DNA of 30,844 nucleotides from a virus (lineage: Duplodnaviria; Caudoviricetes): positions 1 through 30,844 of IMG/VR virus record IMGVR_UViG_3300022930_000025; one strand, given 5' to 3'. Below the pieces are notes generated by a model. It was not told the origin of the DNA, ran no database searches, and saw nothing but the letters and a program-made list of their open reading frames with translations. Shown here in pieces: positions 1,838 through 30,844 of the stretch (the stretch's first letter is position 1; the number at the start of each line of letters is the position of its first letter). The translations under genes were made by a program, and so were the position numbers.

Positions 1838-1880
1838 TAATTTAATCAAAATATTTTATTTAAAATAATTGATATTATAA

Positions 1881-1911
1881 TTTGCATTAATCAATTTTAT
1901 TATTACATTTG
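1881..1911 (+). promoter_or_regulatory. Bacteroidota primary-sigma promoter, rightward (divergent partner)
   Basis: TTTG 1881-1884, 19-nt spacer, TACATTTG 1904-1911. Confidence 0.85.
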
Positions 1912-1946
1912 TATAGTTCAAACGATAATAATTAAATATTAAAGCA

Positions 1947-2357
1947 ATGAAATTAGAAATGACAGTTAAAGAGTTGAGTTTAGAAGAGGTTTTAAACCAC
2001 TCGAAAAAAGAATATAACTCATACGAATGGGTTAGAACAGTTAAAGGCTACCTTAAATATGGTGATGTTAAATTTTACGAGAGAGTTAACGGCCCTCATT
2101 CTTATGATGAAATATTTGTAGTTTATACCCTAGATGAAGGCCTTAGATTAATGAATAGTGTAAGTTATAGCTCTTGTTTAAGTAACGCCGGCTTTGTAAA
2201 GGTTTATTTTGGTCCAAAGGGTGAAGTAATGTCTTCAATGTTTGAAATAATGACCGAAAAAAAGCCTTTTAGGGCCGCTAAAACAAATCAGAACAGAAAA
2301 GCCCTTGTAAAGCTTTCAAATGATGTGGGCGGCCTTATTTATAGTGATTTATTTTAA
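1947..2357 (+). CDS. Hypothetical protein
   Basis: 136-aa ORF, first gene after the promoter, TAAAGCA directly before the ATG. Confidence 0.8.
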   Translation: MKLEMTVKELSLEEVLNHSKKEYNSYEWVRTVKGYLKYGDVKFYERVNGPHSYDEIFVVYTLDEGLRLMNSVSYSSCLSNAGFVKVYFGPKGEVMSSMFEIMTEKKPFRAAKTNQNRKALVKLSNDVGGLIYSDLF

Positions 2358-2970: not shown

Positions 2971-3229
2971 ACATTTAGAATGGTCAAAAGGTGGTTTAAA
3001 ACTATTGGACACCATTAATAAATACATTGAAGATAACGGCGGTAAAGATGCTTTATTAGATGTTTTATTGGTTGAAAATGGTTTTAAATCAAAAGAACTT
3101 ATACAGATTAAAAATCTGGTATATGATAACGTAAGTGATAGAATCGGGGCAAATATTACAGGGTTTAGCCTTGCGACTTATCAAAGAAAAAAATATTTTT
3201 ATAGAGAGCTACAACATGCGAGAACATAA
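2954..3229 (+). CDS. Hypothetical protein
   Basis: ORF overlapping both neighbours; ATG at 2954 preferred over TTG at 2951. Confidence 0.65.
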   Translation: MQENHKHLEWSKGGLKLLDTINKYIEDNGGKDALLDVLLVENGFKSKELIQIKNLVYDNVSDRIGANITGFSLATYQRKKYFYRELQHART

Positions 3230-3821
3230 AAACTTAGCTATATCAATGCTAGGTGCAGGTAAAAAATCAGATAGAAGAGAATTAGATTTTTATCCAACAC
3301 CACCAGACTGCACACATTCATTTATGGCTTTTATGAGAGAGCAGGGTTATTTTTTAAATCCAATTACAATACTAGAGCCTTGCGCCGGCGATGGTGCAAT
3401 GAGTAAGGTTTTAGAAAGTTGTGGCCATAACGTTACGAGTACTGATCTTAGAACAGAGGATATATATGGTAAGGGTGGTGTAGATTTTCTGCAAATGGCA
3501 CCTGATTTTTTTAATCAGTACGGAGCTGTAATAACAAATCCACCTTTTAATATTTCAGAAAAGATCATAAAACATGCCTTTCGTTTTGCTCCAATTGTTG
3601 CAATGGTTCTAAAATCACAGTATTGGCATGCAAAATCAAGATATCATTTTTTTATGAAAAATCCACCTGCTTATGTTCTGCCATTAACTTTTAGACCGGA
3701 CTTCTTTGTTAACGGTAAAAGCGGAACAATGGAATTTATTTGGACCGTTTGGATTGATGGTGTAAGCCAAACCAGGTATATACCTATTAAGAAAACTAAA
3801 ACAAACATGGTTTTATTTTAA
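3216..3821 (+). CDS. Orphan amino-DNA methyltransferase (probably N6-adenine)
   Basis: DFYPTP (motif X), ILEPCAGDG (SAM-binding motif I), VDFL, ITNPPF (catalytic motif IV); ATG 3216 preferred over GTG 3135; no cognate endonuclease nearby. Confidence 0.88.
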   Translation: MREHKNLAISMLGAGKKSDRRELDFYPTPPDCTHSFMAFMREQGYFLNPITILEPCAGDGAMSKVLESCGHNVTSTDLRTEDIYGKGGVDFLQMAPDFFNQYGAVITNPPFNISEKIIKHAFRFAPIVAMVLKSQYWHAKSRYHFFMKNPPAYVLPLTFRPDFFVNGKSGTMEFIWTVWIDGVSQTRYIPIKKTKTNMVLF

Positions 3822-4100
3822 TTTTGCTATAAGCAAAACATCAAGCAAAACCTAAGCAAAAAATCAAAATTTTCAAATTTTGCTTAAGTTTTGCTTAATC
3901 GTATTTTTTGATTTTGCTTAATATTTATGTGATTTAATAAAAAAAGCCGCAATCCTCTTTTTTTTGCTCTAAAATTGAATATGCCTTTAATTAACTTTAA
4001 AGGCATTTTTTGTTTTTTTGCTTATAGCAAAACCTTAAGCAAAACTTAAGCAAAAGTCCAAGCAAAACGCAAGCAAACTCTGAATATGAATATGAATATT
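3822..4100. repeat. Iteron array (AGCAAAA/TTTTGCT) with TGAATA x3; candidate replication origin
   Basis: AGCAAAA at 3832, 3844, 3855, 4026, 4038, 4049, 4061 and AGCAAAC at 4072 (11-12-bp period); TTTTGCT at 3822, 3878, 3889, 3912, 3962, 4016; TGAATA x3 at 4081-4098. The repeats are certain; the origin function is inferred. Confidence 0.8.
3981..4011 (+). terminator. Probable intrinsic terminator inside the iteron region
   Basis: ATGCCTTTAA-TTAACT-TTAAAGGCAT followed by a T-run. Confidence 0.65.
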
Positions 4101-4157
4101 ATATGCTACTATACAATTAATAAAAAGGTATAGATTTTTTTTCAAAAAATAATTTTA

Positions 4158-4186
4158 TTTGCATCAACAAAAAATTATTATGTTAG
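4158..4186 (+). promoter_or_regulatory. Possible non-consensus promoter of the structural operon
   Basis: TTTG 4158-4161, 17-nt spacer, TATGTTAG 4179-4186 (one mismatch to TAnnTTTG), 25 nt before the scaffold ATG. Confidence 0.4.
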
Positions 4187-4211: not shown

Positions 4212-4853
4212 ATGAGAGAAAAGATAATCGCAGAACTATTGAAGATTTTCGTAGGGCTGTCAAACAAACAAGCAGAGGGTATCGCCGATAAACTCTTGCC
4301 AAAGATTACCGAAGAGGCTCAAATAGAGGGCGCAGTTAGCGAACTCAAAAACGGATTAATCAGTCCATTGGATTTAGTAACAGAAGGTGACCGTAGAGCT
4401 ACCGATGCAGTTAACAAATACAAAACTGAAAACCCAAACCCTAATACACCACCTAACCCAACTAATCCAACAATTCCAATTGTACCAGCAGGAGAAACAC
4501 CAGCTGAAAAAAAATTGAGAGAGTTGGAGGAGAAATTCGCGGCATTGGAAAAAAAGGACCAAGAAACATCTTTAAGAAATCAACTTTTAGCTAAAATGAA
4601 GGATAAAAAAATTCCTGAAAGATTTGCGAAGGGGGTTACCTTGGATGAAACAACCGATTTGGATGCGTTGACAACAACATTAGAAGCAGAATTTAAAACG
4701 TTTAGACAGGAAATCATTACTGAAGGCCTTAAAAACAATGAATTTGTGCCGGGAAATGGGGGACAGTCTACAGATTCTACAGCGGTTTCCGCTGACATTA
4801 CTGCTTGGGCTAAGGCAAATGAGCCTACACCACCAGCAGCAGCAGCAAAATAA
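4212..4853 (+). CDS. Capsid scaffolding protein
   Basis: Position before decoration/capsid genes; EGDRRATDAV motif, Pro/Asn-rich linker, coiled coil. Confidence 0.8.
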   Translation: MREKIIAELLKIFVGLSNKQAEGIADKLLPKITEEAQIEGAVSELKNGLISPLDLVTEGDRRATDAVNKYKTENPNPNTPPNPTNPTIPIVPAGETPAEKKLRELEEKFAALEKKDQETSLRNQLLAKMKDKKIPERFAKGVTLDETTDLDALTTTLEAEFKTFRQEIITEGLKNNEFVPGNGGQSTDSTAVSADITAWAKANEPTPPAAAAK

Positions 4854-6616: not shown

Positions 6617-6946
6617 ATGAAAAACTCGCAAGCGATCAAATCTGCAATGCAAATTTCTATCGGTGTTTCAGATACCGATTTGAAAAAGTACGGAATAGAT
6701 TACGGATTGGATATAAACCTTGAATATTCAAGGATTTACCATGACAAGGTTAACGCCGTTGCTGCAGCTGTACTTTCAGCAGCTTTGTTATTTACTAGTT
6801 TGAGCGAAGGCGGTTTTTCAATTTCCATTAACAATGAAGAGGTTAAGGCACGTTTAAGGTATTTGGCAGCTAATTGCGGCGGTCTTTTTGTTTTACCGGC
6901 AGAATTTGGCGAAAAAAGACGTGTTAGAGCGCGTAGGGTATGGTAA
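6617..6946 (+). CDS. Head-tail adaptor (DUF6706-like)
   Basis: Directly after the capsid gene; SLSEGGFSIS motif, terminal W. Confidence 0.7.
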   Translation: MKNSQAIKSAMQISIGVSDTDLKKYGIDYGLDINLEYSRIYHDKVNAVAAAVLSAALLFTSLSEGGFSISINNEEVKARLRYLAANCGGLFVLPAEFGEKRRVRARRVW

Positions 6947-23444: not shown

Positions 23445-24022
23445 GAAAATTAATACTATTACTTTTAATATCGGTCACGTTAAGTAGTTGTGGGCTTTTT
23501 AAGCGTGTTTTTAGCTCTACAGAACGAGTTAAAAGATCAGAAACAACCAAAGTAACCGAAAAAACAGATAGCTCTTCTGTAAAGACTGATAACACTGTTA
23601 TTGTTGAGACTGAAAAAGCGGACACTTCCAGAGAAACCCCAAAAACAGATATTACAACAACAAAAAAAACTGATCTTAAAGATTTGGTTAATGGTTTAAC
23701 TGTAATAGATACCGGTTTGGTCACTATAAAGCAAAAATATGACACCCTTTCGAAAACCTTAAAAACAGAAATTACCATCAAGCCGCAAAAGCTAGATTTT
23801 AAGGTAGATAAGACCAAAACAACCTACACCAATAAAAAGGAAGAGACAAACAAAAAAACACAGCAAGAAAAAAAGGCTGTTATCATTGATGACAAAAAAA
23901 TAAAGACAAAAGAAAAAGAACCTGCAAAAATGGGAATTTGGTTTTTGGCATTAGTATTTATTGTTGTGGTCATTGCCGCTTCTGCATATTTCTGGTTTAG
24001 AAAATCTAAGAGGCCGCTTTAA
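23441..24022 (+). CDS. Probable unimolecular spanin
   Basis: N-terminal lipobox (LSS-C), T/K-rich extended middle, C-terminal TM segment (GIWFLALVFIVVVIAASAYFWF) and basic tail; last gene of the lysis cassette. Confidence 0.75.
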   Translation: MRKLILLLLISVTLSSCGLFKRVFSSTERVKRSETTKVTEKTDSSSVKTDNTVIVETEKADTSRETPKTDITTTKKTDLKDLVNGLTVIDTGLVTIKQKYDTLSKTLKTEITIKPQKLDFKVDKTKTTYTNKKEETNKKTQQEKKAVIIDDKKIKTKEKEPAKMGIWFLALVFIVVVIAASAYFWFRKSKRPL

Positions 24023-24374
24023 AGCTTATGCCGTTAATCTTGCAATGGCACTTCATGAAGTAATCTATATTTATATCGTTCTGTATAAAATTTTCAGGGT
24101 TTTTATAAACCTTTTCAGCATACTCTGTAAAAGCAATCTTAAACCTATCGTTTAGGATTTTTTCGTTACTATCTATATAGGTACACGCCAAATAAAGCAT
24201 TTCGCTTAAGGATCCACAATTCTTTTTATATAAATTTCTATGTGTAAGCACAAAATATTTGCCCTGCACATATTTTTTTATCTTGTATTCTGGAAGTCCA
24301 AAAAGCCCAAACCTTAAACTTATTATAAAATTTTTGTACTGATGGTGATCGTAACCCTTCATATATGAAACCAT
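24006..24374 (-). CDS. Hypothetical orphan protein (moron-like); start probably ATG 24374
   Basis: Reverse-oriented ORF; the TTG start at 24425 lies within promoter/operator sequence. Confidence 0.6.
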   Translation of the reverse strand: MVSYMKGYDHHQYKNFIISLRFGLFGLPEYKIKKYVQGKYFVLTHRNLYKKNCGSLSEMLYLACTYIDSNEKILNDRFKIAFTEYAEKVYKNPENFIQNDINIDYFMKCHCKINGISFKAAS

Positions 24375-24470
24375 AATTTTAAAATTTGAAAGCGTAAATG
24401 TATTTACAATTATTGATATATGCAAATGTATTATTCAATATAAATAATTTTGAACATTTTGATTTATATA

Positions 24471-30158: not shown

Positions 30159-30844
30159 ATGGCATTAAGAAACCAACCCTATCTACCTTTATTTGTACAG
30201 GACTTTCTTACAGATGAAAAACTAATGGAATGCTCCGCATCTTCAGTTGGTGTCTACATAAAATTATTGTGCATTCTGCACAAACAAAACGATTACGGCG
30301 CGATGTCCCTTAAGGACCGAGACAGAAAGTCTGAAAACATTCTTAACGATTTTGCAGTTAAAATTGCCAAGTTTTTACCATGGAATGATGATGTTGTTTT
30401 TATAGCACTTGATGAGCTTGTAGCTGAAAATGTACTTACTATTGATGGTGATAGGTTGCTGCAAAAAAGAATGCACAAAGACGGCGCTATTAGCGATGCC
30501 AGGAGTAAAGCAGGTAAAAAAGGTGGTGATATGTCCAAGCTAAAAAAAGAATGCCTAGACGGCGAAGATTTACCAGAAGATAAAGAGGTTGTAACTGATG
30601 CAGATCAGGATGAATATGTTAATGCGCTTGTAGAACATTATGGTTTTAGTGAAATGAAATACATAAACCAACAAAGATCAATTTTCAATTTTGTAAAACT
30701 TCTTAGATTTAACGGTCAACTTTCACATTTTGCCGATCAGTTCAAAAACTACCATTTATACAAAGAAGCTTCAAAAGAGCAAAAACACAGCTTTAAGTCA
30801 TTTATTGGCACTTCAGCAGAAAAGTTTCAGGATGGTCTTTGGAA
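30159..30844 (+). CDS. Phage replication initiator/replisome organizer (DUF1376/YdaU-like N-terminus), truncated at the window edge
   Basis: Not in ORF track; MALRNQPYLPLFVQDFLTDEKLMECSASSVGVYIKLLCILHK...QKRMHKD...RSKAGKKGG, open to the window end. Confidence 0.8.
   Translation, partial: MALRNQPYLPLFVQDFLTDEKLMECSASSVGVYIKLLCILHKQNDYGAMSLKDRDRKSENILNDFAVKIAKFLPWNDDVVFIALDELVAENVLTIDGDRLLQKRMHKDGAISDARSKAGKKGGDMSKLKKECLDGEDLPEDKEVVTDADQDEYVNALVEHYGFSEMKYINQQRSIFNFVKLLRFNGQLSHFADQFKNYHLYKEASKEQKHSFKSFIGTSAEKFQDGLW

Follow-up and report, generated by a model that had tools for sequence, protein, structure and literature searches.

The window considered here is a whole virus record of 30,844 nt, in which a set of tailed-phage genes (scaffold, major capsid, tape-measure, lysis, SbcC-like, RecT and hydrolase) was recognised; judged by its relatives, the phage appears to be of Bacteroidota type. 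An array of short repeats lies in non-coding DNA between the methyltransferase and scaffold genes, 26 kb from the gene of a likely replication initiator starting at position 30159 (Table 1). The record could be extended by contig L190, which shares an exact 127-nt overlap with the window end and adds about 7.3 kb holding neither an array nor a second initiator. The ORFs scanned over these ~38 kb, which are all but some small ones, yielded no recognisable terminase, portal, integrase, repressor or ParB. The genome is therefore considered incomplete, and its unseen part could harbour another initiator together with a separate origin. The interval between the lysis and recombination genes contains a single reverse ORF (24006-24425) which, together with the lack of a recognised terminase, portal, integrase or repressor, suggests that the phage is lytic or that its genome is rearranged. 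An element of 98 nt occurs at two intergenic places (window 1880-1973 and L190 4860-4956) with about 72% likeness, and is possibly a repeated early promoter. The region 2837-4851 of L190 carries a DnaJ-domain-like gene and then a DUF4942 methyltransferase-like gene of 507 aa, and methyltransferase-like genes in the phage number two.

Table 1. Features of the array region and the distant initiator gene (window coordinates).
Feature	Position	Strand	Remarks
DNA methyltransferase gene	3135..3821	+	phrog_799, E 2e-45; stop abuts array
Cluster 1	3822..3918	+	inverted pair (10-nt offset), 2 more direct boxes, 3 reverse boxes
Lone reverse box, spacer	3962..3968	-	
Terminator-like hairpin between clusters	3981..4016	.	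scores on both strands, T-tract on +
Cluster 2	4016..4078	+	inverted pair (10-nt offset), direct boxes at 12, 11, 12, 11, the last being the AGCAAAC variant
TGAA-NN hexamer run, reads EYEYE	4081..4099	+	candidate unwinding or single-strand binding element
AT-rich stretch (0.82-0.90)	4100..4180	.	extends into likely scaffold-gene promoter region
Head scaffolding gene	4212..4853	+	phrog_172, E 5e-10; opens late operon downstream of array
Likely replication initiator gene, MALRNQPY family	30159..30844	+	269 aa complete; 3' end from L190

Composition of the array

Thirteen exact AGCAAAA/TTTTGCT boxes at 3822-4067 and one AGCAAAC variant at 4072, as counted in the initial annotation, are packed into 250 nt of intergenic DNA. 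This density is far above that of shuffled sequences: in 5,000 dinucleotide shuffles of 3822-4120 the AGCAAAA box occurred 0.98 times on average and 5 times at most, while the top 7-mer of any kind reached no more than 7 copies across 2,000 shuffles. The rest of the window holds at most 2 boxes per 250-nt stretch. Reads of one sequencing run, possibly from the same DNA source, cover the array without differences. A low-depth contig with short matches (21 nt on one side) might stem from a relative in which a similar hairpin and cluster exist, a signal too weak to count.

Written as strand signs separated by spacings, the boxes follow the order - 10 + 12 + 11 + 23 - 11 - 23 - 50 - 54 - 10 + 12 + 11 + 12 + 11 +. 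A phasing of 11-12 bp had been annotated; it holds for part of the spacings, but others are 10, 23, 50 and 54. Seven phased pairs were counted in the array, against none in the 30159 gene. Both clusters are alike (80% identity over 50 nt) and have in common an inverted pair with a 10-nt offset, which occurs in 0 of 105 in-gene pairs, so that a local duplication or a concerted change is possible. Two terminator-like hairpins were found against a shuffle mean of 0.3, and the AT content is 0.80-0.90 at 4080-4180, within an intergenic region most of which is already at 0.7-0.8. GC skew, which had been proposed as a check on the origin, tracks gene direction and is uninformative on this point.

A probable origin nested in the initiator genes of the family

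At E <=0.001, 528 homologues of the 30159 protein were retrieved. A regular-expression search of the best 120 of these found both peptide motifs in 100, one in 15 and neither in 5, the last including one variant-word gene and one fragment. After dereplication at 95%, 75 initiator genes remained, all of which contain at least one phased box pair (median 3), compared with 0 in the 30159 gene; the AGCAAA word is used by 65 of them. The expectation that homologues carry AGCAAA boxes and an EYEYE-type run within the gene was thus borne out. Strict boxes are present in both clusters of 48 out of 60 genes, and the 3 genes without any use variant words. The usual layout consists of two in-gene clusters followed by a TGAA run repeated every 6 nt, with an invariant 9-nt offset of the inverted pair. 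The two clusters of the array had been reported to lie 194 nt apart, which is correct, but the in-gene counterpart is not ~225 nt: the distance ranges from 226 to 301 nt with a median of 250 (47 of the 75 genes, those having both inverted pairs).

Codon choice indicates that the boxes and the TGAA run are selected as DNA and not just as peptide. In the (X-E)n run of 59 genes, every Glu codon is GAA (248/248, vs 890/1214 or 73% elsewhere) and the alternate codons end in T in 245/248 cases (vs 4196/8858 or 47% elsewhere), while KQ in cluster 1 is encoded by AAGCAA in 130/149 cases against 34/110 elsewhere. In three initiators (L172, L176 and L225), an extra domain is inserted after the N-terminal domain, and cluster 2 and the run of L172 are shifted to about residue 220.

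Phased short repeats are typical of pac sites and partition centromeres, and the array adjoins head genes, as a site bound by the small terminase or a ParB-type protein might. Such a role is nevertheless very improbable, given that the same word and layout were found within initiator genes at about 100 loci. The array pattern is nearly specific to these genes: among 32 carrier genomes, 18 of 19 matches fall in the initiator ORF and the 19th directly follows a truncated initiator ORF. When 401+401+401 sampled genomes were searched, two new matches were obtained, one in an initiator ORF and one by chance. Moreover, no ParB or terminase was recognised among the scanned ORFs of the incomplete genome.

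Gene-nested origins are a textbook case of dual-use DNA. The lambda origin lies in the central part of gene O (PMC7466680) and the Rep boxes of pSK41 in the linker of its RepA_N gene (PMC5703833). Iterons and an AT-rich tract inside the initiator gene, as in ori-lambda (PMC7466680), are the state of nearly all family members, and in having repeated boxes (13+1) the array agrees with the lambda O and SPP1 oriL origins. Unlike in ori-lambda, the 6-7-nt boxes of the family form two clusters separated by about 250 nt, with a TGAA hexamer run in addition, and the array of this phage lies outside the initiator gene.

The initiator gene and protein of this phage

In the 30159 gene, the box-coding codons and the TGAA run are gone, whereas the winged-helix-like N-terminal domain is intact. 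Its description as box-free stands in that no phased pair is left, but an isolated exact box at 30778 and a one-mismatch relic at ~30350 persist. Iterons in the then unseen 3' end of the gene had been named as a possible refutation; the end completed from L190 has no array. An alternative consistent repeat was looked for in the gene and none was found. All residues that are invariant among the 65 AGCAAA-type genes are retained in the protein; 6 of its 13 departures at well-conserved columns fall within the box-coded stretch 50-64 (positions 50, 53, 54, 56, 57 and 64). The DRKS peptides resulting from box loss are similar between this phage and the clade of the relative G030 (L307, L312), by either convergence or shared ancestry. 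As judged by eye, the segment following the long helix varies with the repeat word (GGGNP with AACAAA, R119 with TACAAA), and the 30159 protein has the AGCAAA-type form, including the KKGG segment. Residues 115-125 of the family alignment appear to covary with the repeat word (AGCAAA, AACAAA, TACAAA and CGCAAA types) and represent a candidate specificity determinant.

The 30159 protein is likely a replication initiator. It has itself no Pfam, PHROG or NCBIfam family match, including to the RepA_N and DnaD-like Pfam profiles (E 0.05) and to the DUF1376, Lin1244_N and Phage_rep_org_N profiles, and no match to its family was found among 50,697 GenBank phages. Among the PHROG families matched by its homologues are replisome-organizer, DnaD-like and replication-initiation ones, and the initiator gene of G030 is followed by that of a DnaC/IstB-type ATPase. 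Its neighbours in Atlas features (0.92-0.94), taken as a lead only, are initiators of the DUF1376, Lin1244_N and Phage_rep_org_N type. A structure model (pLDDT 75.5, pTM 0.43, 11 sequences) gave RepA_N, DnaB and DnaD-NTD proteins as top three neighbours with middling Z of 6.4-6.8 (4pta, Z 6.8, rmsd 4.1 over 87; 5wtn, Z 6.6; 2vn2, Z 6.4), tied with generic winged-helix proteins, and Foldseek E values above 0.1; Z values below 8 may reflect just the common winged-helix fold. A DnaD-like winged-helix N-terminal domain, predicted with 4pta as best neighbour, would be a likeness to RepA_N replicons, from which the protein differs in lacking a profile match.

Outside copies and the probable function of the array

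Searching the window with the nucleotide profile of the family (nhmmer) gave exactly two significant matches besides the gene, one on cluster 1 (3820-3889, profile 144-203, E 3e-4) and one on cluster 2 and the run (4045-4099, profile 398-453, E 1e-8). The array is collinear with both in-gene clusters, the box order of cluster 1 being that of the first in-gene cluster of homologues, and its descent from the in-gene origin by common descent would be the simplest reading. In the initial annotation, the array had been read as a fossil linker of the initiator. Both cluster translations (4028-4117 and 3831-3884) and the upstream in-frame TAG were verified, but the reading found no support in this form: the translation follows the DNA motif itself, EYEYE being the TGAA 6-nt repeat, and it can be regarded as a by-product since the non-coding copies of the relatives G023, G030 and G031 also read linker-like. 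At E up to 1000, no match of the spacer to the central part of the gene was obtained in this phage, G030 or G031, while gene controls score 69-94 bits. Were the array a functionless leftover from the duplication and decay of an initiator gene, this would agree with both clusters translating like family linker segments in gene order. However, 14 near-perfect boxes stand against a spacer devoid of gene similarity, and the protein profile of the family finds nothing at 3822-4120. Neutral decay would not spare the boxes alone; this possibility is largely refuted and has very little probability left. The comparison argues that the array is a retained cis element and not a readable pseudogene. The proposed split of the roles of an ancestral initiator gene therefore stands in part: the gene has lost its boxes, the array is collinear, and the situation recurs in G030 and partly in G031, but no trace of a decayed ORF was seen. 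Because the spacer has no gene similarity, duplication and decay of a whole gene is indistinguishable from copying of the origin modules alone.

Twenty-four virus records carrying the initiator gene were scanned in full. In-gene arrays are present in 20, one of which (G023) also has an outside copy, a non-coding single cluster with a TGAA run after the lysin gene. The other four (G030, G031, G028 and G029) have genes without cluster 1 and TGAA run. In G030, which is 100% complete, the gene is devoid of both phased pairs (0) and a TGAA run; 10.7 kb away, beside the recombinase, lies a non-coding copy with two clusters and a run (word GGCAAA). The G031 gene has kept the cluster-2 boxes but lost cluster 1 and the run; its outside copy, two clusters and a run after the lysin gene, is 85% identical to its own residual in-gene boxes over 39 nt. 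In both phages the outside word follows that of the local clade (GGCAAA, or mixed). No outside copy was detected in the iteron-poor G028 and G029, which are syntenic with G030 and end before its site, nor in G025, a complete genome whose gene lacks cluster 1 and which counters a simple rule. G022 and G024, which share the head module with this phage, have in-gene arrays and no outside array (G022, G024 and G036 are near-copies of each other). An outside copy occurs in 3 of 5 iteron-poor records against 1 of 20 with in-gene arrays (Fisher p 0.016, descriptive only as "iteron-poor" was defined after viewing the data).

The split recurs in only two other phages, fully in G030 and partly in G031, of one Bacillota-type clade. 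Further iteron-poor proteins of the family are P0018, P0026 and P0045. In trees built without the box-coded segment, the 30159 protein is placed among box-rich relatives (SH-aLRT 82-93), apart from the G030 clade and from P0018 and P0026; a single shared origin of the loss is not rejected by an AU test on 106 columns, which has little power (p 0.34). No close relative with an array before the scaffold gene was found, the scaffold query giving 0 loci, and five capsid relatives are devoid of both this initiator family and any array. A blastn search of the array region against phages and plasmids returned only short AT-rich chance matches, and a generic three-box pattern scan (120 loci) mostly unrelated repeats. 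An 11-nt spacing was rejected as a mark of non-coding copies, since Bacillota-type genes use this spacing in frame.

The oriR segment of SPP1 presumably lies just before the scaffold gene. In SPP1 (PMC6316719), gp38 binds both oriL, located in gene 38, and oriR, which belongs to a moron segment of the late region and is proposed to stall forks. The position of the array just before the scaffold gene parallels oriR. Direct repeats in non-coding DNA, for oriR within a moron that breaks into the late head region, and a RecT-type recombinase in the same genome are common to both phages, and the AT-rich element of oriR may have a counterpart beside the array (PMC6316719). The array could thus bind the initiator as an oriR-like fork block or restart site, or as a late-promoter regulator, with replication starting by recombination or from an unseen origin. 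The RecT/SbcC-like/hydrolase module and the splitting of the array by a terminator-like hairpin would fit. We nonetheless regard such a function as unlikely, because a block requires an origin elsewhere while the in-gene one is gone, and the TGAA run is kept in all four non-coding copies (this phage, G023, G030 and G031). These copies lie at three kinds of site (before the scaffold, after the lysin and after the recombinase genes), which argues against any tie to the late promoter. A decoy or parasitic origin for the initiators of co-infecting phages of the same family, poorly bound by the resident protein, would be consistent with the 10-nt offset unique to this array and with the use of the AGCAAA word in 65 of the 75 genes, which makes cross-recognition plausible. 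It appears still less probable, as the resident protein keeps all invariant residues and the AGCAAA-type KKGG segment, the outside word of G030 and G031 tracks that of the local clade, and a site for others would be expected to retain the 9-nt geometry.

Hence, the array at 3822-4100 is probably the sole working replication origin of the phage, moved from the initiator gene. A copy of the in-gene origin would first have been placed in non-coding DNA, with the boxes lost from the initiator gene thereafter; outside the reading frame, the inverted pair may then have shifted from the invariant 9-nt to a 10-nt offset, although a 10-nt pair, given 0 of 105 in-gene, might be unsuited to the protein. 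The proposed history runs from an in-gene origin through a second non-coding copy (as in G023) and partial in-gene loss (G031) to full loss (G030 and this phage), and G023, G031 and G030 possibly form a stepwise series. By analogy with lambda, SPP1 and RepA_N systems, from which all steps are taken, the 30159 protein would act as dimers that bind the inverted pairs as well as the boxes spaced by about one helical turn. Clusters 1 and 2 may become linked, opening would occur at the TGAA run and the AT-rich flank, and the helicase would be loaded through the C-terminal domain of the initiator and the product of the next gene. The hairpin would halt methyltransferase transcription ahead of cluster 2.

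In-gene origins and oriR-type duplicates are already known; the difference here is that the in-gene boxes are lost and the outside copy alone retained. In SPP1, unlike in this phage, oriL stays in gene 38 with oriR as a second site (PMC6316719), and the protein family and repeat word are others. With the in-gene copy erased, no copy besides the outside one would be seen; an in-gene origin with the same repeats coexists in G023 and not in this phage. The origin of the Vibrio PLE is non-coding and away from repA (PMC7145576). The array resembles oriR and the PLE origin in type, but without a coexisting in-gene origin. Moreover, pSK41 and PLE are separate elements of fixed layout, whereas in-gene, duplicated and relocated states are seen here within one phage family. 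No report of this initiator family or of the loss of an in-gene phage origin was found in a literature search with limited coverage of subscription journals and older phage papers.

A broader reading, which we hold tentatively although it is quite possible, is that the origin repeatedly left the initiator gene stepwise and that the TGAA run is a dedicated DNA-opening or single-strand binding element. If so, the route (in-gene, duplicated, partly erased, fully erased) would still be visible in living genomes, exit from the gene would free the protein and the origin geometry from a shared reading frame, and EYEYE or ENENE "low-complexity linkers" would mark origins across many phage initiator genes. 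The family offers a natural experiment in separating both jobs of such DNA: what an origin requires can be seen from the outside copies (boxes, two clusters, TGAA run), and what the protein requires from the residues kept in freed genes. It would also provide a compact origin-initiator pair for a family without a profile and a candidate replicon for Bacteroidota. Caution is also warranted with the acidic low-complexity linkers of such proteins, as these can represent signals at the DNA level.

Two further loci were observed. In a mobile island of Maribellus mangrovi (L173, 10001-10560), the initiator is truncated at 136 aa; its stop is immediately followed by cluster 2 with the TGAA run, here as non-coding DNA. 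In L141 of G027, the non-coding DNA just upstream of a short DUF1376-like gene (122 aa) holds, at 6811-6838, iteron-like boxes and then a TCTTCA-type run, which corresponds to a reversed TGAA run; this is possibly a parallel case in a sister family.
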